From the NCBI GenBank assembly GCA_016932815.1, contig JAFGCC010000014.1, forward strand, positions 80,129-144,128: a DNA stretch of 64,000 nucleotides. Reading direction: 5' to 3'. Of the stretch, positions 48,228 to 60,344 are shown piece after piece (within the stretch, counting starts at the first letter, position 1; each line of letters begins with the position of its first letter). The stretch is from Candidatus Micrarchaeota archaeon. GTDB lineage: Archaea > Micrarchaeota > Micrarchaeia > Anstonellales > Bilamarchaeaceae. The notes under the pieces are model-generated. The model was not told the origin of the DNA, made no database searches, and was given only the letters and a program-made list of their open reading frames with translations. A program made the position numbers and the translations under genes.

Positions 48228-49445
48228 ATGCTCCCATACGCGGCAGCCTTGGATTCGTTGCCACTGCTAACAGCGGACCTCTCCAATGTTGCACAGGTTG
48301 CACCATTTGATTTCTCGCTGGTGTTCTTAGCGATGCTAATTGGGGGCACAATCGGGATACTCTACTACATCTTATCCAAGGTGCTCGCATCCCCGCAGAT
48401 TGAGGCGTTTGCAAAAGAGGAGTTCTCGCAATGGTTCATCAACCTCTTCATAGTCGTATTGTGGCTGGTGGTGTATGGGGCTTTGGGCTCTGTAATCTCC
48501 ATAGTGGCGTGCGACGGGGCTCCCGCGTGCGACCAGTTCAGCGTCGCGTTCTTCGCGCTGGACACGGTTTATTGGCAGCTATTTAGCGCGTATTCTGCGT
48601 TCTTGTCAATTGAGTTCCTTGTGGGTTTCTTCTCAAGTGTGGGCTTCAGCCTTCCTCTGGGAATCCCGCTAGCGGCGGTAAAGTGGTTCGGCTTCTCCCC
48701 CCTGGGGGGGCTTGCGATGCTCAGCAACGTCGTAGTCAATGTTGTTGAGAGCGTGGGGATGCTTGTAGGGCTGGTGGTTGGGAGGGAGCAGCTTTTGAGC
48801 CTGTTTAGGGATATTGTGCCCAAGTTCCTGCTTCCGTTTGGGCTGCTTTTGCGCGCACTCCCGTTTACGAGGATTACCGGCTCAAGCATAATTGCGATTT
48901 CCTTTGCCGCATTCTTCATATTCCCCCTATCAATCATACTCTCGCACTACATGATGTTTGAGGTGCAGGCAACCAACACTTATATCCCTATTGTGCCCAC
49001 TCCCACGGGCTTCTGCGAACTGCCGGAGAACGAGGCGGAATTCCTCAATTCAACTGCGTACCTGGCGGACAAGAACCATGAGGTGGGAGAATACCTCGCA
49101 TACTCGCCTGAGAGCCAGGTGTCTTATGACAGCCTGCGCTACCAATTTACGGAGTTCATCTCCTCTGCGGCGGAAGGGCTTGGGGCGACGACTTCCAACA
49201 TATTCGGGTTCACGGGGCAGTGGTACACCTCGATTAACCTGATTCCGGCGCTTGCCAAGCCGACCACTTTCGCGTATTTCTTCTATTACCTGCTCCTAAA
49301 CCAGCTCCAGGTCTCAGCGAGGCTTGCCGTTATGACCGCCGTGTCGTTCGTGATGGAGATACTAATCACGATTACCGGATACAGGGCGATTGCCGCCGCA
49401 ATAGGCGGAGAGCTCGAGATACTCGGGCTAACGAAGGTGGTCTAG
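48228..49445 (+). CDS. Polytopic membrane protein, CedA/VirB6-like family (operon copy 1)
   Basis: FAKEEFSQ; PFGLLLRALPFTRITGSSIIA; C-terminal IGGELEILGLTKVV. Confidence 0.7.
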   Translation: MLPYAAALDSLPLLTADLSNVAQVAPFDFSLVFLAMLIGGTIGILYYILSKVLASPQIEAFAKEEFSQWFINLFIVVLWLVVYGALGSVISIVACDGAPACDQFSVAFFALDTVYWQLFSAYSAFLSIEFLVGFFSSVGFSLPLGIPLAAVKWFGFSPLGGLAMLSNVVVNVVESVGMLVGLVVGREQLLSLFRDIVPKFLLPFGLLLRALPFTRITGSSIIAISFAAFFIFPLSIILSHYMMFEVQATNTYIPIVPTPTGFCELPENEAEFLNSTAYLADKNHEVGEYLAYSPESQVSYDSLRYQFTEFISSAAEGLGATTSNIFGFTGQWYTSINLIPALAKPTTFAYFFYYLLLNQLQVSARLAVMTAVSFVMEILITITGYRAIAAAIGGELEILGLTKVV

Positions 49446-49446
49446 G

Positions 49447-50391
49447 ATGCTTCCCGATTTGCACGTGCAGGTAATTGGCGTGACGATTGCGGCCATTGCC
49501 GCCTACATCGGGGTTGTGTTCATGGCCTCAAAGGCGCTTGGGCGCCCCCAGTTGACGGCGTACGCGAAAATTGAGGCGAACCAGCTATTCATCTCCGGGC
49601 TAATCCTGGTGATTGCCCTTGGGGCGTGGCACTTCTCAAACGGGATGATGGAGCACCTTACCGGATTCGGGCTTGAATCTGCGCCGCTGAAGTTTCTGGA
49701 CCGGATAATCAACGAGGGGATACTGCCCGTTTACGTCAAGCTTGTGCGCATGGAGGTTGCGCTTACCTATTTCAACGCGATTGAATACAGGATGGGGCCC
49801 GGGGTTTGGAACTTCACTACGCGCGTGGTTCCGGGGCTCGACCCCCTAATCTCTATTGTGCGCATGCTCATCTTTTCATATACCGCATTGTACGGGACGT
49901 TCTCGGTATTCGTCATTGTATTCACGATTGTGCCGGGGATACTCTATCCATTCATCCTTCCTGCGGGGATAGTGCTGCGTTTTTTCCCGCCAACGCGTGA
50001 TGCGGGAGTCTACCTCATAGCGCTAGCCCTGGCTTTCCAGACGCTCTTTCCGATACTTTATGTGATGAACTTCGTCGCTTTGAGCGAGATGTGGGTGGGG
50101 CACGAATGGGTGGCCGACGACCCCGACAGGCATGACGAATATACCCCGAACATAGAGCAAAGCAGTTATTTCAACGAGGTTAATGCCGCTGCGGGGGCAG
50201 CCGGCACGGCCGCCAGCGGATTCTCAACGTGGTTCCCGGTGCTCCAGCCGTTTTCGTTCGCGGGGCTCCTGCCGTTTTTGGACAGGGTTGCCCAGCTCTC
50301 ATTAGTGGGGCTGGTACTCCCGGCGCTGGTGTTTACGCTGGTGCTCTCAATGGTGAGCGCGGTGACGAAATTCATAACGGGGAGGGGATGA
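49447..50391 (+). CDS. Polytopic membrane protein, CedA/VirB6-like (copy 2)
   Basis: YAKIEANQ; PAGIVLRFFPPTRDAGVYLIA. Confidence 0.7.
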   Translation: MLPDLHVQVIGVTIAAIAAYIGVVFMASKALGRPQLTAYAKIEANQLFISGLILVIALGAWHFSNGMMEHLTGFGLESAPLKFLDRIINEGILPVYVKLVRMEVALTYFNAIEYRMGPGVWNFTTRVVPGLDPLISIVRMLIFSYTALYGTFSVFVIVFTIVPGILYPFILPAGIVLRFFPPTRDAGVYLIALALAFQTLFPILYVMNFVALSEMWVGHEWVADDPDRHDEYTPNIEQSSYFNEVNAAAGAAGTAASGFSTWFPVLQPFSFAGLLPFLDRVAQLSLVGLVLPALVFTLVLSMVSAVTKFITGRG

Positions 50392-50392
50392 G

Positions 50393-51649
50393 ATGCTGCC
50401 GACAGACCTATCCAGCATGGCAAGCCTTGAAGCGGTGTGGCTTGAGTGGCAGGTTGTCGCTTTTGCGGCACTCATGATTGCAACCGGGTTTGCGGCAATC
50501 GCCTATGCGTTTGGGCACTTCCTCTCCAACGAGAAGATAATCGCTTTTGCGAAATTGGAATTCGCGGAAATCATATACTCGGCGGTGCTAATCGTTTCTG
50601 TGCTCTGGGTGCTGGGGATGGCATCGGGGGCCGTGGAGGTCATGATTGAGGGGGCTTATCCGCACAACCTGGGGAGCACTATTTGCAGCCCCACATACGA
50701 TGCGTATTTCGGGGGGGATGCGAACTTCCCCTGCCACCTGAGGGTTGCGCGGTATTACCTGGATACGCTCTACAACGAGGGAAAGGAGTTCAACTACGAG
50801 CTCCTCTCTGCGCACATGTGGTATTCGTTCTTCCAGGGATTCCACCTTACAGGAGACTTCCATGAGCATGCAAGCGGGACTGTGGAATTCTCTCCTATGG
50901 GTTCGCTCTTTAGCCTGCCCTCTGCGGTTTATTCCTACATGTTTGAGTTCGGGATGCGCGCCATGCTGATTGTGCGCTTCCAGGCGTTCTTCATAAATTT
51001 CATAAACTACTCGCTATACCCGGTGCTGCTGATGCTGGGGATGATACTGCGCACATTCCCGTTCTCAAGGAGGATTGGGGGGCTTTTAATGGCGATTGGA
51101 ATCTGCCTTTACTTCGTTTTCCCGATGTTTTATGTGTTTGGGGGGTACGTGTTTGAGAACGTGCGCGAGAACGTGGACTGCGAGAATCCGGATGCGCAGG
51201 GGTATTGCCCCGTGATTGCCACCCTCACTTTCAACCCGCAGGAGCTTTATGAGGGGGTGGACTTCGTATCGGAGGACCCAAACGGGGTTAGCGCGATTGG
51301 GAAGGTTAAGCCTGCGGAGATAGGCACTGATGAGTTCAAGCTGTTGTATAATGGAACGGACACGTATTGCGATGTCAACAACATGGGGGTGGAGGGAATC
51401 GGCTCCACCACGTGGAACCTCCTGCGCTCCTCGGTTTTCGCCTTTGATTTTACCACGCTGCTATCAAGCGAGGAATACATGGATTCCATAGTCGGCCCCG
51501 GAGGGGCGATAGACGCTACTGCGAGATTGACGTTCTTCTCGATGTTCTTTGCGCTTCTTGCAATCTTCTCAACTATCGGAGCCATAAGGAGCCTATCCCC
51601 GATATTCGGGGGAGACATTGAGCTTGCGGGGCTTACGCACTTGATATGA
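50393..51649 (+). CDS. Polytopic membrane protein, CedA/VirB6-like (copy 3)
   Basis: FAKLEFAE; LGMILRTFPFSRRIGGLLMAIGICLYFVFP; FGGDIELAGLTHLI. Confidence 0.7.
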   Translation: MLPTDLSSMASLEAVWLEWQVVAFAALMIATGFAAIAYAFGHFLSNEKIIAFAKLEFAEIIYSAVLIVSVLWVLGMASGAVEVMIEGAYPHNLGSTICSPTYDAYFGGDANFPCHLRVARYYLDTLYNEGKEFNYELLSAHMWYSFFQGFHLTGDFHEHASGTVEFSPMGSLFSLPSAVYSYMFEFGMRAMLIVRFQAFFINFINYSLYPVLLMLGMILRTFPFSRRIGGLLMAIGICLYFVFPMFYVFGGYVFENVRENVDCENPDAQGYCPVIATLTFNPQELYEGVDFVSEDPNGVSAIGKVKPAEIGTDEFKLLYNGTDTYCDVNNMGVEGIGSTTWNLLRSSVFAFDFTTLLSSEEYMDSIVGPGGAIDATARLTFFSMFFALLAIFSTIGAIRSLSPIFGGDIELAGLTHLI

Positions 51650-51655
51650 GGTTGT

Positions 51656-52909
51656 ATGCAAATGAAGGATGCGGAAATGAAAATCAGGGTCGGGGCTCTC
51701 CTGCTCTCCCTGCTGCTGTGCTCGTGCGCGTTCGCGCAGGAAGGCTCAGGCGACTCTCCGCTATACGATTTGCCGGATGGCGCTTCCGCAGAGGGGGCGG
51801 CAACGGATGGAGTCCTTAGTGCCTCGGAGCCCGCAAGTTATGGGGCGCTAGCAGAATTCGACGCGAACCAGGACGAGGTCTCAGAGCGGATTGATGAGCA
51901 GCTTGATTCCACCCTGGGCGTGTTTAGCGGGACCTGCGCGCAGGACCCTGCGGAGAATTTCGATTTTGTTGTTCCCACTATGCTCGCATTGCTGGTAATC
52001 GGGATGGGGATTGCGATTTTCTACATGGCGGGCAACTTCCTTGGCTCGCCGCAGCTTATTGCGATGAGCAAGCAGGAGCTATTTGAGCTAATACACACCG
52101 CGCTGATTGTGGTGTTGTTTGCGCTGTTATTGAGATTCGCAGACCAGCTGATTTTCTCCGGGAGCGGGGGGAGCAGCATATACGATGTTTCCCTTGAGTA
52201 TTCGCTCCTGATGATACACAAGATAACAAAGGACACTATGTGGCTATCCCTCATAAACACGCTAATATACATGCTATATAGCGCTCCTTTGAGGCTGGGC
52301 GGCTCACTGCACCATGCTGTGCACTTCAACCTGGGGGGAGTGCTCAAGCCGTTCGTGGACGCGGTCGGGACCATGGCTTCGCTCTTGTCTTTTGCAATAG
52401 GCGAATGGATTGCGAACATCAGCGTTTTGTGCTTTATCAAGAGGTTCGTGCCCAATTTGTTCCTGCCAATCGGGGTGCTCCTAAAGGCGTTCCCGCAAAC
52501 GCGGGGCGGGGGGAATGCGGTAATAGCGATATGCATAGCGTTCTTCCTGATATACCCGGTAATGCTTTATATGAACCATGAGGCATACCTGTACAAATAC
52601 GGGGCGATAGGCGAGCGCAGCGGCCTGGAGGAAATCGTGAGCGCATTCATGGTGGAAACCGGATGGCTCAACCTTTCGTTCTATGCGTTCTTCCTGTGGC
52701 TCTTTACCGGGCAGCTTGTGGGAATTGCCTTCTTGACGCAGTTCGTGGTATTCTTCATAGACATGCTCTCGGATGTCATATACACTGTTTTCGTTTTGAG
52801 CATATTCCTGCCCCTAATGAACATATTCGTAACGCTCACTTTTGCAAGGGAGATAGCGAAGTACTTCGGGACGGAGATAAACATAGCCGCGTTCGTGAGG
52901 CTGATATGA
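51656..52909 (+). CDS. Polytopic membrane protein, CedA/VirB6-like (copy 4, with signal peptide)
   Basis: N-terminal signal (..CSCAFA-QE); MSKQELFE; PIGVLLKAFPQTRGGGNAVIA; FGTEINIAAFVRLI. Confidence 0.7.
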   Translation: MQMKDAEMKIRVGALLLSLLLCSCAFAQEGSGDSPLYDLPDGASAEGAATDGVLSASEPASYGALAEFDANQDEVSERIDEQLDSTLGVFSGTCAQDPAENFDFVVPTMLALLVIGMGIAIFYMAGNFLGSPQLIAMSKQELFELIHTALIVVLFALLLRFADQLIFSGSGGSSIYDVSLEYSLLMIHKITKDTMWLSLINTLIYMLYSAPLRLGGSLHHAVHFNLGGVLKPFVDAVGTMASLLSFAIGEWIANISVLCFIKRFVPNLFLPIGVLLKAFPQTRGGGNAVIAICIAFFLIYPVMLYMNHEAYLYKYGAIGERSGLEEIVSAFMVETGWLNLSFYAFFLWLFTGQLVGIAFLTQFVVFFIDMLSDVIYTVFVLSIFLPLMNIFVTLTFAREIAKYFGTEINIAAFVRLI

Positions 52910-52919
52910 GGTTGTTGAA

Positions 52920-54011
52920 ATGGAGATACTAGCTTCAAAATTCTGTTTTGCTTCGGGCTCTTCCATTGCGGATGCATTCTACATCCCGGAGTGGCAAACA
53001 CTCTCGCTGCTGGCCCTTGTAATCTCGGTGGGAATCCTCTCGGTCATTTACCTCTTCAACAGGCTCTTTGGCAACGAGCAGGGCGAGACTTGGGTAAAGA
53101 TTGAACTATTTGAGATACTGGCCACCTCGTTTATAGTGGTAATCATAATCGGGCTGCTCAATGCGGCCTGCGTGATTCCGGTTGGGGACCTGGGGATTAG
53201 CGTGGGAGACGATGCGGCGAACCTCAACGTGTTTGATGCGGCAGCGGAAACGCTAAGCCAGTTTTCGTGGGTATTGACTTATACGATGACTGCCCTGCAC
53301 ACTCTTTACATACCATTTGATTTCATGACCACCCAGACCATGACCGCACAGCCTTTGGGGATGGGAACCACGGTGCAGCCTACTGCTGGAATGGGGGCAG
53401 TCATCAAGCCCGGATACGTGAACGCGCTGCAGATGATGAGCGTTGCGTTCATAGTGGTGCGCGCGGAGCTGCTGCTCCTGGACTTTGCAACCTTTGCATT
53501 GATTAAGTATTACCTGCCCCTTGGGATACTATTGCGGTGCTTTGCTCCCACTAGGCGTATTGGGGGGACGCTAATCGGGCTGGTTGTGGGGGTGGTGCTG
53601 GTCCTCCCATCGCTTGTAGTCCTAAACGGGGTTTTCACGGAGTCGTTTACTTCTGCTGCAAACCCGTTTGGGTTGAATGAGCCAATCGAATTCTTAGGCT
53701 CCCTGCTTAGCGCCGGGGGGACTGCGATATGGAGCGACATGTGGGAGAGCTTCTCAGGTGCGTGGGGAGGCGGGAGCGGCTCGTTTACGCCGCTTAGCCT
53801 CTTCCAGATACCAATAGGGCTAGCATCGTCCATAGTGGGGCTGTTTGCAGGGCTTTATTCGTTCGTTTTCATGTGGGCTGCGGGGCAGGCATTCCTGATT
53901 GGGCTGTTCTTCCCGGCACTCAATACCCTTTTACTAGTTACCACCATAAGATACCTTACAAGGGCGTTCGGTGAGGAGATAGACGTCACGAACCTTACGA
54001 GGATGGTATAG
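52920..54011 (+). CDS. Polytopic membrane protein, CedA/VirB6-like (copy 5)
   Basis: WVKIELFE; PLGILLRCFAPTRRIGGTLIG; FGEEIDVTNLTRMV. Confidence 0.7.
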   Translation: MEILASKFCFASGSSIADAFYIPEWQTLSLLALVISVGILSVIYLFNRLFGNEQGETWVKIELFEILATSFIVVIIIGLLNAACVIPVGDLGISVGDDAANLNVFDAAAETLSQFSWVLTYTMTALHTLYIPFDFMTTQTMTAQPLGMGTTVQPTAGMGAVIKPGYVNALQMMSVAFIVVRAELLLLDFATFALIKYYLPLGILLRCFAPTRRIGGTLIGLVVGVVLVLPSLVVLNGVFTESFTSAANPFGLNEPIEFLGSLLSAGGTAIWSDMWESFSGAWGGGSGSFTPLSLFQIPIGLASSIVGLFAGLYSFVFMWAAGQAFLIGLFFPALNTLLLVTTIRYLTRAFGEEIDVTNLTRMV

Positions 54012-55043
54012 ATGGCATGGGAAACAATCGCGATTGTCGCAGTCGGGCTTTCCGCCCTCCTTGCAGCGATAATGGTGATGTTCTCAAGGCTCTTTGGAGT
54101 GCCTTCCCTTGAGCAGTGGGCGAAAGCGGAGATGGTGTTTTCCATATCCACCTTGTTCTTGGTGCTCTTCCTGGTGGTCACGGTGCAGGCGGTGGAGCCA
54201 TTCCTAAAGGACCTGGTAGTGGAGATGAGCACGTATAATTACGCGCAGGCTACGGGGACTGCGATGGAGGTGCAGGTTTCAGATGACGCGAACCTCATGG
54301 ATTATACGATTGCATACATGACTTCCATGACTTCGTGCATGAGGACGCTGTTTGCATTTTTAATGAAGCTGAATTTCCCCCTGGAACTTACCGCATCATT
54401 CAAGATTGACGCTTTCATGTTTGATATTGTGACCGGGTGGGCGTTCAAGGGGCCGGTGCAGACTATACGGAACATTACCAATTACATTACGTTTACCCTG
54501 TTCATATACTACCTGTTCATACACGTTATGAGATTCGTCAATGCAACCGCCATGAGCGTGTTCCTCCCATTGGGCATAGTGCTGCGGCAGTTCCCGCCCA
54601 CAAGGGGGGCCGGGGCATTCGTGATTGCGTTTGCGCTTGGGTTCTATTTCGTCTTCCCATTTGCGTACCTGCTTGCAATCAACGTTACGCCGCAGACTTT
54701 TGCGTGCCTTCCTTTGCCCGAATTTGACATACCTTCTGCGGCTGGGCTTGGCGATATGAGCAAGGCATTTGAGCTTGCGGCGTGGACGGATGCAAACCAG
54801 AACGAGATTCTAGGGGCGATACAGGGAACCGGGACCTACATTGCCGGATTCTCATTGGACCAGTTCAACATAATCCCCGATGCCCTTGAGCCTGCGGGGG
54901 GGAGGCTTGCGGGCTTCTCCATAAACCTGTGCTGCCTGCCATTTATCGCGATGATGCTCACTATGACGTTCATACTCTCTACTATGAACCTCTTTGGGGC
55001 GAACCTGCCGGAAGTCGGAAGGGGATTCGTGAAATTGATTTGA
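54012..55043 (+). CDS. Polytopic membrane protein, CedA/VirB6-like (copy 6)
   Basis: WAKAEMVF; PLGIVLRQFPPTRGAGAFVIAFALGFYFVFP; FGANLPEVGRGFVKLI. Confidence 0.7.
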   Translation: MAWETIAIVAVGLSALLAAIMVMFSRLFGVPSLEQWAKAEMVFSISTLFLVLFLVVTVQAVEPFLKDLVVEMSTYNYAQATGTAMEVQVSDDANLMDYTIAYMTSMTSCMRTLFAFLMKLNFPLELTASFKIDAFMFDIVTGWAFKGPVQTIRNITNYITFTLFIYYLFIHVMRFVNATAMSVFLPLGIVLRQFPPTRGAGAFVIAFALGFYFVFPFAYLLAINVTPQTFACLPLPEFDIPSAAGLGDMSKAFELAAWTDANQNEILGAIQGTGTYIAGFSLDQFNIIPDALEPAGGRLAGFSINLCCLPFIAMMLTMTFILSTMNLFGANLPEVGRGFVKLI

Positions 55044-55132: not shown

Positions 55133-55690
55133 ATGGACAGGTTCATCCTTGACACCAGCCTTTTCGTGAATCCGGCTTCGAGGAAGCAATTCGGGAAGAC
55201 TCCCCCGGAGGCCGTAAGGGCATTTGTCCGCAAGGCAAAGGCGAAGAAGGGGAAGGCGGAGTTTTATATGCCCCCCCTGGTGATGGACGAACTTGCGAAC
55301 TTTGCGAAAAAGGATGCGGGAAAACTCTCGGCGGTTGTGAAAAAGCGCGCCCCGAACATCTATGGGATATACATACCCGCTGCGATACTCTATTCGTTTA
55401 TAGAGGACGTGCGCGCAAGGGTGAATAAGGGGCTGAGGCTTGCAGAGGAATTCGCGCAGGACAACCGTCCGGAAAATGCGGAAAAACTAAGCAAGCTGCG
55501 CGCGAAATACCGCGATGCCATGCGCAAGGGGATGGTGGATTCCCGGGAGGATTTGGAGATAATCCTGCTTGCATACGAACTGGGGGCGGCAATCGTGACA
55601 TCCGATGAGGGGATAACCCTCATGGCCAACCAGATTGGCGTTGAGTGGATAGAGGCAGAGAAGTTCGGGGAACTCCTAAAAGCCCTCTAA
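55133..55690 (+). CDS. RNA-free ribonuclease P (HARP / Aq_880-like PIN protein, 'RNA ligase partner')
   Basis: FILDTS, RARVNKGLRLAE, LRAKYRDAMRKGMVDSREDL, TSDEGI. Confidence 0.92.
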   Translation: MDRFILDTSLFVNPASRKQFGKTPPEAVRAFVRKAKAKKGKAEFYMPPLVMDELANFAKKDAGKLSAVVKKRAPNIYGIYIPAAILYSFIEDVRARVNKGLRLAEEFAQDNRPENAEKLSKLRAKYRDAMRKGMVDSREDLEIILLAYELGAAIVTSDEGITLMANQIGVEWIEAEKFGELLKAL

Positions 55691-55704
55691 GGTTCGGGGA
55701 GCCG

Positions 55705-57138
55705 TTATTTAGCGCCGCCCTCTTCTTTCCCAGGGGTTTTTTCTTTGGCGGCACCGCTATCTTCTTCTAGCATTTCCATTGCAACGTCTTCTGTGCTGGA
55801 TTCCTTCCTGGCTGCGCGCTTCTGCTTCTCCCTCTGTACTTTTGCGACTACCACCTTGTCCAGGTCGGCCCCCTTTTCATAGACGATTTTGGGCTTATGC
55901 AGCGCCTCTTCGCGCACCACCTGGAGGGCTCCGAAGGTGGTCACTATTATGCTTCCCACAATTACCACGAAGGCGATGTCGGAGAAGCCGCTAATCTGCG
56001 CGGTTATTTCCGCATAGGTCTTAGGGTCCATCGCCTCGGGGTGGTCTGCGGCATATTGGATTAGGATTCCCATGGGATAGGTTGCGAGCACTGCGGAGCC
56101 GAAGCCGCGCGGAATCAGGATTTCCATCTTGTGCGCATCGGCGCGCAGGTCGCTGCCCATAGTGGCAATCTGGACGGAAACCTTCCTTGCCACATAAAGC
56201 AGGATTATTATGCCCACTCCCAGGAACACCATGTCCATGCTTGCAATTGAGACTAGGGCACCTAGGAACACGAAGAAGAATGTGCGCACCATAAACGAGA
56301 TTTCGTCTTGGAACTTGAGCATTTCTTCGTCGTTGGTAATTGTGGTGAGGCCGGTTGCCCTGCCTATTTCGGCCATGTTTCCCAGCATGATCCCAAAGAC
56401 TAAGACTCCTATTGCGCCGCTTGCTCCTACGGATTCAACTGCGACGTAGAATAGCAGGGTGACTGCGAAAGTTAGCATGTGGAAGAACTTTAGTTCGCGC
56501 ATCTGGGTTCCGACTAGCATCCATATGGCGCCTGCGACTACCCCCAGGAAGGCAGCAGTTGAGAACTGGTTTACCACCCCGCTTACTATGCTCCCTATAT
56601 CCAAGGCGCCGCTTATTAGGCCGGAAGTGAGTGTAATTACGAGCACTACGCCCAGAACGTCTGTGATTGCGGACTCTATGCTCTGGAAGTGCTTGGTTTC
56701 TTCTTTGAGGCCAATTCCATCTGAGACGGGATTCACCATGGCTCCGGTCGTTCCCGCGAGGATTGCTCCGAGCAGGACTCCGACTATTACGTTGCCAAAG
56801 AGGTAGGTCCAGAGTGCCGCCACCAGGGCGATTGAGAGGATTCCCACCAATAACCCCATTGCGACTCCCCTGGCACTCTCGCTAATTAGCTTGCGCAGGT
56901 TCATCCTCGTTCCGCTATCAAAAAGCAGGATCATAAGGGCGAGAGGGCCAATTAGGCTCTGGAGTTCTCTTAGAAGGTCAATATCCACCATGCCCGTTAG
57001 TGGGCCTAGCATGTAGCCTATTGCAAGGAGGATTAGCACCGGGGAAATCTTGTATTTTTTAAACAGCATTTCGCCCAGGAACCCTATTACCAGAATCCCT
57101 CCGAGGATTGTAAATGAAACCAGTGTTTCGCTTGCCAT
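55705..57138 (-). CDS. Cation:proton antiporter (NhaP/CPA1)
   Basis: ILLFDSG, ESAITD, FFFVFLG, PRG motifs; about 12-13 hydrophobic segments. Confidence 0.9.
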   Translation of the reverse strand: MASETLVSFTILGGILVIGFLGEMLFKKYKISPVLILLAIGYMLGPLTGMVDIDLLRELQSLIGPLALMILLFDSGTRMNLRKLISESARGVAMGLLVGILSIALVAALWTYLFGNVIVGVLLGAILAGTTGAMVNPVSDGIGLKEETKHFQSIESAITDVLGVVLVITLTSGLISGALDIGSIVSGVVNQFSTAAFLGVVAGAIWMLVGTQMRELKFFHMLTFAVTLLFYVAVESVGASGAIGVLVFGIMLGNMAEIGRATGLTTITNDEEMLKFQDEISFMVRTFFFVFLGALVSIASMDMVFLGVGIIILLYVARKVSVQIATMGSDLRADAHKMEILIPRGFGSAVLATYPMGILIQYAADHPEAMDPKTYAEITAQISGFSDIAFVVIVGSIIVTTFGALQVVREEALHKPKIVYEKGADLDKVVVAKVQREKQKRAARKESSTEDVAMEMLEEDSGAAKEKTPGKEEGGAK

Positions 57139-57148
57139 CTTTTTTCAC

Positions 57149-58216
57149 CTAGTCTGCCTGTGCGTACCCCTCAATTGCACGCCTTATCTTCCTGCTGCCC
57201 TCCTTGTACTTCTTTTTGAAGCGTATAATGAGCGCACCCTTTAAGTTAGTTTCCCGCACGTCCCTTATTTCCACTTCCTTTGACATGTGCGAGAGGAGTT
57301 TGCCCCAGGTTTCCCTGTTTTTTATCGTGAATTCAAATTCCTCTGCGGCCTCCCCACCGGAAGTGAGGGCGGAATAGAGGAGGCAGTGGAGGGCTTCTCC
57401 CATGCGCGCATCGTATTGCTTTTTGTTTAGGCCAAGTTCATTTACGGATGCCGCGCAGCGGAACACCCTCTGCTTCATGAATCCCAGGGGCATATCAAAA
57501 ATGAGGTGCGAGTTTTCTGCGAGGTCGCGGATGTCGGAGGAAGGGAGGACGTATTTCAGGATTCTCCTTGGGTTCTCCTGCTTTAGGACCATTCCCTCTG
57601 CGCCCTTCTTGTCAAGGGAGATTGCCAGCTTTTTTAGCTGGCTGCGGTTTCCGCCGCCCACTCTTTTTACCAGGGGAACCGGGTTTAGGCCATAATCATT
57701 GCACAGCTTCCTGCGCTCTTTTGGGGAGAGGTAGTTGTTCTTCCCGTCTCCCATGTCGAATACGTAGTATTTTGCCCCGGTTCCGGATGGGGCTTTTGTG
57801 TAGGGGGTGTTTCCCACCATTTCCATGTAGAGGACCTTGTTTGGGTGGGCTGCGAAAAACGCCTTTGCGTTTTCATCATCGGATAGTTTTTCTGTTGCGA
57901 AGAAATCCAGGAAGCCGCCCCTTGAGATGCACATTATTTTTCCGCCCTCATAAATCGTGCGGAGGTTATAGCCGTCTATTTTTTCCTCCACGAATATTTC
58001 GCCTTCGTGCAGGTTCTTCTGCACGCCCTTTTCAAGCGAGAACACCCTGCGGATTTTGGGGTAGCCGTATATTACCCTCTTTCCGGTTACCACTGTTCCG
58101 CGGGGGATTTTGCCTATGCTCTCCGAGAACCTGCATACGCCGTCGCGCTCTTGTATCCTGCCCTTTTTGATTGCATTCAGGATTTTTTTGCGCAAGCTTG
58201 CTTTTAGGTCCTTCAT
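57149..58216 (-). CDS. ATP-dependent RNA ligase (Pab1020/Rnl3 family)
   Basis: GYPKIRR, EEKIDGYN (motif I), SRGG, FD, EGMVLK, KY. Confidence 0.92.
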   Translation of the reverse strand: MKDLKASLRKKILNAIKKGRIQERDGVCRFSESIGKIPRGTVVTGKRVIYGYPKIRRVFSLEKGVQKNLHEGEIFVEEKIDGYNLRTIYEGGKIMCISRGGFLDFFATEKLSDDENAKAFFAAHPNKVLYMEMVGNTPYTKAPSGTGAKYYVFDMGDGKNNYLSPKERRKLCNDYGLNPVPLVKRVGGGNRSQLKKLAISLDKKGAEGMVLKQENPRRILKYVLPSSDIRDLAENSHLIFDMPLGFMKQRVFRCAASVNELGLNKKQYDARMGEALHCLLYSALTSGGEAAEEFEFTIKNRETWGKLLSHMSKEVEIRDVRETNLKGALIIRFKKKYKEGSRKIRRAIEGYAQAD

Positions 58217-58220
58217 TGGT

Positions 58221-58730
58221 TCACCAGGGCACCTTCTTTAGGCCTGCGCGGTTTGCCAGCACGTTGGTTAGCACGTGTAGGGCGTAGGAAACGACTATTA
58301 TGAATGCGAGGTTGGGGAACGTATAGATGGGCTCTGCAAAGGGGTAGGCGAAAACCAGGCCGCCCACTACGAAATCCATCTGGTCAACCACGTTGAACTG
58401 CTTTCCCTCCCCGATTTTTAGCCTGCGCTTTAGGAAGCTTCCGGCAAGGTCGCCAATTAGGGCGCCTACTGCGAGCATTATGCCGCTTAGGAGGAGTGTT
58501 TGGGGATTGTTGAATATGAGGTTGGGCCAGAATTGGGAGATGAGGAGTGATGCTAAGACGCCCACTACGATTCCGCCTGCGAAGCCGCGGACGGTCTTGG
58601 TTTTCCCGAATAAGGGGTTGCCGTCTGCGAGCTTTATGCCCATGTCCATGCGGGGGCCTCCGCCTAGGAGAACCGGGGCGGCGTTTGCGGCGTAGCAGGG
58701 AACCATGAATGAGAGCAGTTGGAGCCACAT
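58221..58730 (-). CDS. carS: CDP-archaeol synthase
   Basis: ANAAPV, DGNPLFGKTKT, GDLAGSFLKRR, DQMDF, KKVPW. Confidence 0.95.
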   Translation of the reverse strand: MWLQLLSFMVPCYAANAAPVLLGGGPRMDMGIKLADGNPLFGKTKTVRGFAGGIVVGVLASLLISQFWPNLIFNNPQTLLLSGIMLAVGALIGDLAGSFLKRRLKIGEGKQFNVVDQMDFVVGGLVFAYPFAEPIYTFPNLAFIIVVSYALHVLTNVLANRAGLKKVPW

Positions 58731-58800: not shown

Positions 58801-59559
58801 TCATTTTTCGCCGATGTTGAAGATGTCCTGCTCCAGCGACTTTTTGGATTTTAGTTCGGTGAGCACGTAAGTTAGGAGGATTGCCTTGATGCGCTCGTAG
58901 GATTCCTTTCCTACTGGAACGTTGCATACTGCATACCTGAGGTTCTTGGCATTTGAGCAGAAAAGCGCATCATGCACGTTTTCGCAGTTGTGGCAGAAAT
59001 AGGCTCTTGAGCACTCCTTTAGGGAATCGCACTCAAAGCAGCAGGTGCATTTTACGCAGTTGTAGCAGTTGATGCAGTATTTTGAGTAGAAGAGGCGGTA
59101 GCACCCAAACGAGTATTCTGCGAACTTCGTGTAGGAAGTGTGGGAGACCCATTTGGAATTGAATGCGTCCTGGGACTTGTAGGTGTTGAGGGTATCTTCC
59201 ACCCCGATTGTTTCTGGGTTGTTGCGGTCTTCGCCCTTGCGCATGTCCAAATTGAAGAGGGCTATTTTTGCAAACTCGCCCACCACGCCTTTGAGGGTGG
59301 AGAGATTTGCGGGCTGCAAGCTAAGCTGGCGCGCTTCCTTTATCTCATCGAAGCCGAGTATGCGATTGCTGGGAATCTTCTCCATGAATGCGTATTGGAG
59401 AATCAGGCGCAGCTTCTTTGAGTGGAAAAACGAGTTGCAGGTGCGCTCCTGCCCAAGGTGGCGCATGAGCCAGGGGCCATACGAGTCTATTCCCTCCAGG
59501 GGCCCTCCGAGGATTAGCCTGGCAGTAGTCGAGAAGGCGTTTTCCGCTTCTGCGCTCAT
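58801..59559 (-). CDS. Cys-rich beta-solenoid-like hypothetical protein
   Basis: CINCYNCVKCTCCFEC...FCHNCENVHDALFCSNAKNLRYAVCN...KESY; start overlaps the stop of the upstream paralog. Confidence 0.7.
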   Translation of the reverse strand: MSAEAENAFSTTARLILGGPLEGIDSYGPWLMRHLGQERTCNSFFHSKKLRLILQYAFMEKIPSNRILGFDEIKEARQLSLQPANLSTLKGVVGEFAKIALFNLDMRKGEDRNNPETIGVEDTLNTYKSQDAFNSKWVSHTSYTKFAEYSFGCYRLFYSKYCINCYNCVKCTCCFECDSLKECSRAYFCHNCENVHDALFCSNAKNLRYAVCNVPVGKESYERIKAILLTYVLTELKSKKSLEQDIFNIGEK

Positions 59560-60344
59560 TTGGCACCGCCTCCTGCTAGCTCGAAAATCGTGGGGAAGGA
59601 TTTTTTGCTCTGGATTTCTAGTGCTATTTCCCCTAGGAGCTTCTGCTTGAGGGGAAAATATTCCTCCCTTGGGAGGGGAATGTTGCCTATCATGAATTTT
59701 GCATTCACCTGGTTCATTGAGAAGAGGCATTCCTGGGAGAACTCCATCCTCCAGCAGAAATGCAAGTCCGAGGAGGTATGCGAGTATCCGCTCTGGAAGA
59801 AGCGGCTTGAGAGGTAGTTGTGGTAGCTTTTAACCATGAAGTTGCAGAAGGCTGAATAGGTGCAGCCGAATATGTATTTGGAATTTAGGAGGATATCCGA
59901 ATAGCAGGAATACTGGGAATTGTATGCGGCGTTGGTTTGGTGCATGAAGCCGCAGTCCATTATCCCATCAGAAGATGTGATTTCGAAGTTCTTTCCCAGG
60001 TGCTTGTCCCCGCAATAGGAGAAATTCTCCTTTGCGGCGGTTAGGAGTGAATCTATGTCTTTTATTTCGTTTATGCTGAATTTTGGGGGCGGGAGGAGTG
60101 GGCACTCCGAATCTGAGAGGAACGTTCCCTTTTTGGGGTATTGGGGGGAATAGAGGAACACCTCTTTTTTAGAGATGAAGGACTTGCGTGCTGTTGGGGG
60201 CGGGGCGGTGGAAGTGAGGAATCCCCTTAGTTCCTCTAGGCCGCCCAGCTCGCTGCCGATTGTGCTCCTGCAGGCGCTGCGGAATGCGGAATCGAGCTTT
60301 TGGAGGAGGAGCTTTTCCTTTGCCGAGGCTCCGGGATTGTTCAT
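59556..60344 (-). CDS. Paralog of 58801..59559 with fewer cysteines
   Basis: Shared layout: AF...R...G.ELG.LE, solenoid, LFS.N..N.K..I.N.P..REEY..LK..LL..I..E..SKKS...IF. Confidence 0.7.
   Translation of the reverse strand: MNNPGASAKEKLLLQKLDSAFRSACRSTIGSELGGLEELRGFLTSTAPPPTARKSFISKKEVFLYSPQYPKKGTFLSDSECPLLPPPKFSINEIKDIDSLLTAAKENFSYCGDKHLGKNFEITSSDGIMDCGFMHQTNAAYNSQYSCYSDILLNSKYIFGCTYSAFCNFMVKSYHNYLSSRFFQSGYSHTSSDLHFCWRMEFSQECLFSMNQVNAKFMIGNIPLPREEYFPLKQKLLGEIALEIQSKKSFPTIFELAGGGAK

Follow-up and report, generated by a model that had tools for sequence, protein, structure and literature searches.

Background

The described systems closest to the genes studied here are the archaeal Ced (Sulfolobales and Desulfurococcales; CedA, CedE, CedA1, CedA2, CedB and CedD) and Ted (Thermoproteales) systems, which are chromosomal and use one or two membrane subunits of the CedA type, and the bacterial type IV secretion systems (T4SS). 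In the two-membrane bacterial machines the corresponding subunit is a central homo-pentamer capped by VirB5 or IcmX: as outlined in PMC9259494, VirB6 (TrwI in R388) recruits and assembles the pilin in a structure without a continuous channel, and DotA of the Legionella Dot/Icm system opens into a conduit according to 10.1101/2025.06.23.660953. Several divergent VirB6 paralogs with variable extensions occur in the host-dependent Rickettsiales, where Anaplasma has four within a full VirB system (PMC7648143). Domesticated T4SS parts are also found in small epibionts, since Patescibacteria carry a chromosomal T4SS whose virB6 is reported as essential in Ca. Southlakia epibionticum ML1 (PMC12102498), and VirB4-like ATPases of Nanohaloarchaeota have been proposed to be host-directed (PMC10266531). 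Here we describe a block of six adjoining VirB6/CedA-like genes, g1 to g6, in a 64,000-nucleotide stretch of a Candidatus Micrarchaeota archaeon genome (GCA_016932815.1, contig JAFGCC010000014.1, positions 80,129 to 144,128 of the forward strand), referred to below as the window.

We propose that these six diverged homologues together form, as a heteromer, the membrane core of a T4SS-like machine encoded in the chromosome, driven by a CedB/VirB4-like ATPase from another contig (C4) and serving contact and exchange with a host cell, a reading that in our judgement has about an even chance of being right as a whole. The parts of this reading differ in strength and are weighed separately below. 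The underlying observation is firmer: the expansion of the VirB6/CedA subunit to six paralogs is real, old and lineage-wide, and it is linked with a VirB4-like motor.

Six abutting paralogs

The six open reading frames (ORFs) are all on the + strand, at window positions 48228-55043, with intergenic gaps of 1, 1, 6, 10 and 0 bp (Table 1), as an earlier note made from the sequence alone had described. All pairs among g1-g6 align in BLASTP (E 2e-19 to 3e-3, mostly 22-30% identity across about 200 residues), and K63, E65, G205, L208, R215, G218 and P233 (g1 numbering) are invariant. The N-terminal xKxE motif reported earlier is present in all six, with F, Y, F, M, W and W in g1 to g6, respectively, as its first residue. 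A central G-x-x-L-R/K...R-x-x-G...P motif is likewise common to the six, with small departures from the form first given, PxGxxL(R/K)xFPxTR: g3 has MLG instead of PxG, and g5 has FAPTRR. This motif had also been taken for a re-entrant one, which the g5 model contradicts: it forms there a tight turn joining two long helices (H156-207 and H209-247). As previously observed, most of the proteins end in a common tail, GxE/D...L-x-K/R/H-x-x, found in five of six with the shorter g2 as the exception, and several carry Cys pairs, which are conserved in g3, g4, g5 and g6, with no conserved pair in g1 or g2. By eye, g4 shows an additional N-terminal hydrophobic stretch, signal-peptide-like, and an acidic segment.

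Table 1. Positions of the six genes in the window and of related loci on other contigs of the same genome (aa, amino acids)
Feature	Position	Strand	Description
g1	48228..49445	+	405 aa VirB6/CedA-like membrane protein, position 1; own clade in tree, with position 1 of the second set as its sister group
g2	49447..50391	+	314 aa, position 2; shortest; without the common tail; weakest CedA match
g3	50393..51649	+	418 aa, position 3; conserved Cys98/Cys114; top match of the CedA profile
g4	51656..52909	+	417 aa, position 4; conserved Cys94/Cys259
g5	52920..54011	+	363 aa, position 5; conserved Cys9/Cys84; source of the structural model
g6	54012..55043	+	343 aa, position 6; conserved Cys109/Cys232 (plus Cys307)
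Second six-gene set	C17:31695-39223		found with the profile of g1-g6
Lone family copy	C12:47197-48153		within the compact locus C12:46947-51082
ATPase module	C4:3135-9370		N-domain protein, ATPase and coiled-coil partner (types as in C12) plus two further genes

Homology to CedA, VirB6 and DotA

The likeness to CedA and VirB6 suspected in the earlier note is borne out, and we regard the homology of g1-g6 to these proteins as very probable. Against an independent set of 49 CedA-family proteins gathered via the NCBIfam model, only one of which has the exact motif of that note, the family profile matched at 95.9% and 96.2%; the alignment covers 233 of 260 columns and runs from the N-terminal hairpin through to the final helix. 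The controls, a reversed CedA set and three membrane families without relation to it, stayed below 0.5%. Twelve of the 17 subgroups reach at least 87% against CedA, position 2 being the weakest. Conversely, a CedA profile run on the 12,933 ORFs of the genome matches three family members and nothing else, g3 (E 1.7e-7) being one of them, and the sole match of the family profile in five Thermoproteota genomes lies within a CedA gene (one genome of the five). A first CedA set had been drawn from Ced loci by the motif of the earlier note (7 of 11 loci gave a CedA ORF, three verified by NCBIfam); the match was 91%, single ortholog groups gave 3, 68 and 16%, and masking the motif abolished it. Because a motif-picked set is biased and makes the test partly circular, it was replaced by the independent one.

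The predicted structure hints at the same relationship. For the g5 model (predicted local distance difference test, pLDDT, 88; predicted template modelling score, pTM, 0.82), TrwI/VirB6 and DotA are the two top folds over the whole chain, at 8-10% identity, and share with it long hydrophobic helices that come after a hairpin at the N-terminus; disulfide-rich inserts are described for DotA as well (10.1101/2025.06.23.660953). A Foldseek search of the PDB gave no significant match; a single-sequence fold of g5 (pLDDT 45) was not used. In the ESM Atlas, the structural neighbours with a template modelling score of 0.7 are unnamed Microcaldota clusters, and a cluster in which 23% of members carry PF27251 (CedA1) scored 0.89, a lead only. 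Homology of the family hairpin to pilins was considered and is not claimed, the hairpin and the pilin of the C12 locus giving 0.1-0.3% against the CedA1 profile.

At the level of named families, the six proteins stand apart. Pfam and NCBIfam give no family name for any of them, and a PDB sequence search finds no relative. The NCBIfam CedA model (NF041796, cut-off 330 bits) has no match among g1-g6 or anywhere in the genome; the CedE model (NF053657, cut-off 400 bits) has none among g1-g6, and 2 of 40 g6 orthologs match it far below the cut-off (best E 3.6e-7). Pfam VirB6/TrbL matches neither g1-g6 nor any of 86 g5 relatives. Judged from sequence, the six genes appear to belong to the CedA/TedA/VirB6 superfamily by end-to-end homology to CedA, and by family cut-offs the set is not a Ced member. 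Convergence, with g1-g6 as an unrelated membrane family, would be most surprising given the end-to-end 96% profile match with clean controls, the reciprocal match of the CedA profile, the two best-ranking folds being those of TrwI and DotA, and the linkage to pilin and VirB4-like genes described below.

Other family members and ATPases in the genome

The profile of g1-g6 finds 13 family members in the genome: g1-g6, a second set of six on contig C17 and a single copy on contig C12. The second set is followed by two Cys-rich proteins of 1,522 and 1,477 aa (C17 31695-48271 in all), and giant genes like these flank the second set in three other genomes examined. Elsewhere on the same contig, a look-alike of a diversity-generating retroelement (C17:28483-30666; a two-frame reverse transcriptase, a template-like stretch rich in Asn and, upstream, a gene carrying a matching variable stretch, all by eye) and a 1,411 aa AAA+ protein (C17:23650-27885; multi-helix membrane N-terminus and apparent intein, by eye) were observed.

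The lone copy lies in a compact run, seen in most genomes examined, that encodes an 81 aa two-helix protein, the family member, a protein with a membrane anchor (259 aa), an ATPase (503 aa) and a coiled-coil protein (231 aa). This run repeats the pilin, membrane subunit, ATPase order of Ced loci. Among eight orthologs of the 81 aa protein, five match Pfam T4SS_pilin and four TrbC/VirB2, the genome's own copy being without a match, and its Atlas neighbours are T4SS pilins; a PDB sequence search with it gave one match, judged to be chance. The pilin sought in the genome is of the VirB2 type and found at C12, and the CedA1 profile matches nothing in the genome. The best NCBIfam family of the C12 ATPase is CedB (E 3.6e-30), ahead of HerA, but its score of 105 bits lies far below the cut-off of 700.

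A cognate VirB4/CedB-like ATPase was another expectation of the earlier note, and the genome has two such ATPases, on C12 and on C4. Of the outcomes that the note named as refuting it, a lack of structural similarity and a missing cognate ATPase have not come about. The identity of the C4 ATPase is 51-89% in most of the phylum. The N-terminus of CedB is matched by the N-domain proteins at 56%, compared with 0.3% for the reversed control; this hints at a CedB/VirB4 divided between two proteins, one with the N-domain and one forming the motor. The system also has extra partners without a known family. Two further ATPases were noticed: an 864 aa DUF87 protein with a TrwB-like match, possibly a coupling protein, 12 kb before the window (C25:65166-67760), and a HerA-like third ATPase (785 and 740 aa), without a match in this genome, that follows the locus of the lone copy in two genomes from other orders (L105:10843-13197 and L107:476-2695).

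Conservation and history of the block

Each of the 41 genomes in the sample of this order contains 9-24 family matches. Gene order was checked at 20 loci with clustered top matches from 40 relatives of the order and at 20 loci from the match list of 151 genomes; these loci were picked and so show conservation, not frequency. The order g1-g6 is kept in 20/20 and 19/20, respectively, and the fortieth locus shows g1-g5 at the edge of the fetched stretch. Conservation of the order had been raised for DPANN as a whole; here it is shown for Micrarchaeota, the phylum covered. Two six-gene sets are present in all five genomes of the same order examined fully, and the lone copy in four. In other orders, each of five single-contig genomes has one six-gene set and one lone copy, and in three of them the six genes are directly followed by two N-domain genes and the C4-type ATPase with its partners; in a fourth the set keeps the N-domain genes with the ATPase elsewhere, and in the fifth set and module are fully separate. 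No pilin gene was seen beside any six-gene set inspected for gene content.

A FastTree phylogeny of 125 sequences and 280 columns recovers 19 of 19 groups as clades. At positions 1, 2, 3, 5 and 6 the members of the two sets group as pairs (support 0.70-0.90), and at position 4 they do not; this position-by-position pairing indicates that the block was duplicated as a whole. Sequences from the other orders fall with their counterparts at position 6 (0.97) and position 5 (0.75), so that at least some positions are older than the split of the orders; deeper nodes are without resolution. Named homologues are nearly all from Micrarchaeota, with exceptions labelled "bacterium", "ainarchaeum" and Saccharimonadales, and a relative of the lone copy at 69% identity is labelled Bilamarchaeaceae, which makes Anstonellales the probable order of the genome.

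The GC content of the six genes (53.5%) is close to that of the genome (52.7%), and the set therefore appears native. Its neighbours are leuS upstream and a PIN_5/HARP gene downstream; neither an ATPase nor a pilin gene adjoins it in this genome, as had been noted. A mobile-element origin was rejected on the basis of the native GC content, the housekeeping neighbours and the lack of any match to g6 in plasmids. Together with leuS, the genes at window 55133-58730 (PIN_5/HARP, RNA-ligase-like and cation/proton antiporter-like genes, CDP-archaeol synthase) flank the set in many relatives. Beyond them lie two neighbouring look-alike Ser/Cys/Tyr-rich proteins without a Pfam match (window 58801-60344). 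A promoter and terminator scan, made with a bacterial model, stayed at chance level. Two relatives showed particular arrangements: in one, the six genes are followed by proteins of 1,555 and 808 aa (L039:11112-18090), the latter matching lytic transglycosylase (SLT) weakly (E 7.6e-4, under the cut-off), which recalls VirB1; in the other (L040:4100-4700), the g2 ortholog frame has, by eye, about two added upstream hydrophobic hairpins resembling its own first hairpin.

Co-occurrence with the ATPase

Over 151 genomes, the family is present in 135 and the ATPase in 134, and presence or absence of the two agrees in 150. All 16 family-less genomes also lack the ATPase; the single discordant genome, 89% complete, has the family without it. 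With a deeper profile, absence of the family was upheld in the five genomes rechecked. The losses cluster in six taxonomic families and are not independent, and the family-less genomes of these families span 0.7-1.6 Mb. Five genomes have a single match: two contain the lone copy and adjacent ATPase only (gene content read for G165), two have an ATPase module at a contig edge, and the fifth (G072) is without an explanation.

Considering both adjacency (3/5) and agreement (150/151), a VirB4-like ATPase is linked to the VirB6 homologues, as in T4SS, and we consider it probable that the six-gene set and the C4 ATPase make one machine. A second T4SS trait, the VirB2-type pilin, is present at the lone-copy locus and absent from the six-gene set, where the adjoining CedA1-type pilin gene characteristic of Ced is also missing.

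Proposed machine and its use

Since there are always six abutting genes, each under its own constraint, the simplest arrangement would be one complex with one copy of each. In such a complex, each subunit would be anchored by its N-terminal helical hairpin (with the KxE turn), and its long helices would join a single ring, as in TrwI and DotA. The shared motifs would build the common ring and a motor-facing surface, the divergent outer segments, often with Cys pairs, would provide each position with a partner of its own, and the VirB4-like motor, split between an N-domain protein anchored in the membrane and the ATPase, would dock on the cytoplasmic side. A complex prediction for g4, g5 and g6 (score 0.06, mark 0.32) speaks neither for nor against this. 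The word channel, used in the earlier note, may be too narrow for the product, given the R388 VirB6 structure.

The paralogs could instead form separate homo-oligomers or sub-assemblies, alternative or side by side, as with the duplicated VirB6 of Rickettsiales. The pentamers of TrwI and DotA cited above are homomeric (PMC9259494, 10.1101/2025.06.23.660953) and Anaplasma is reported to express its four VirB6 paralogs (PMC7648143), but interchangeable copies would be expected to differ in number and order, whereas six genes are present in every complete set examined, abutting, in fixed order and duplicated as a unit. We consider this arrangement rather unlikely, and the Rickettsiales and Micrarchaeota expansions are presumably independent. 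Slightly less likely still is an exapted, non-transporting platform for pilin extraction or assembly, or for display of giant surface proteins in adhesion or envelope building. R388 VirB6, as a pilin recruitment and assembly base (PMC9259494), and the giant Cys-rich proteins after the second set would suit it; yet the Ced/Ted and Dot/Icm relatives move macromolecules, and the six-gene sets inspected have no pilin gene beside them.

As to what a transporting machine would be used for, the host-directed role that we propose is moderately favoured over DNA exchange among kin. It is drawn from lifestyle and from the analogy with Patescibacteria, together with the existence of a separate compact Ced-like locus and the 7-13 such genes kept by small genomes. 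The same machine could nevertheless carry out Ced-like DNA import or exchange within the species, for repair and recombination and with no host role, and this is the most serious competitor, though distinctly less probable: CedA/CedE and CedB, the nearest relatives in sequence, have DNA import as their tested function, and CedA and CedE are proposed in PMC11868833 to form a hetero-oligomer. Against it, the compact pilin-VirB6-ATPase locus with a Ced layout is already present and could fill that role, Ced uses one or two such genes compared with 13 in this genome, and the second set is flanked by Cys-rich proteins of 1,500 aa. DprA was not found either, which is weak evidence in a genome 91.5% complete.

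In its working, the six-gene system seems to resemble the Ced/T4SS core, yet it lies outside Ced by the defining tests. It shares with Ced and Ted a homologous membrane subunit (nearly the whole of CedA), a CedB-like ATPase and a chromosomal location. It differs from them by six fixed paralogs per block, with two blocks in this order, by a family without a CedA model match, by a pilin of VirB2/TrbC type without a CedA1 profile match, by a split ATPase with extra partners, and by its occurrence in a host-dependent phylum. No six-paralog block is described for Patescibacteria or Nanohaloarchaeota in the available text of PMC12102498 and PMC10266531, and the Micrarchaeota proteins are nearest to CedA among the families tested.

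Significance for Micrarchaeota and their hosts

We found no publication on a Ced/VirB6-like system in Micrarchaeota, in a search that left most subscription literature outside; the supplementary tree of archaeal CedA homologues of PMC11868833 could hold such sequences. The main text of a 2025 survey of Micrarchaeota genomes (PMC12892359) does not contain the words "secretion", "T4SS" or "VirB". Two cryo-tomography papers, PMC11329633 on ARM-1 and PMC11420986 on YN1, state that it is unknown which proteins link DPANN archaea with their hosts. For ARM-1, PMC11329633 reports an unidentified 21 nm barrel where host nanotubes dock. It is a tentative idea, and an unlikely one in its full form, that a VirB6 ring of six different subunits and its VirB4-like motor make up the symbiont's part of the junction with the host and may even be this barrel. 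In the ARM-1 proteome table of the same paper, the lone-copy protein BCS90956 is absent, in a table where membrane proteins are often missed and ARM-1 rows are often unannotated, and the labels DUF87/COG0433 stand on host proteins only; the table is therefore uninformative on this idea.

Family members are on record in co-cultured strains, namely ARM1_0413 (P0184) and a protein of Ca. Mancarchaeum acidiphilum (P0271), so that the idea of host contact is testable now. The block provides a near phylum-wide, named candidate for the DPANN-host connection, with a parts list for the candidate machine: six membrane subunits, a split ATPase and a coiled-coil partner, the pilin locus being separate. 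With it, the range of Ced/T4SS-like systems reaches beyond Thermoproteota to a DPANN phylum. If the proposal is true, a six-part VirB6 ring would be an architecture new to type IV machines, not seen in any solved one.

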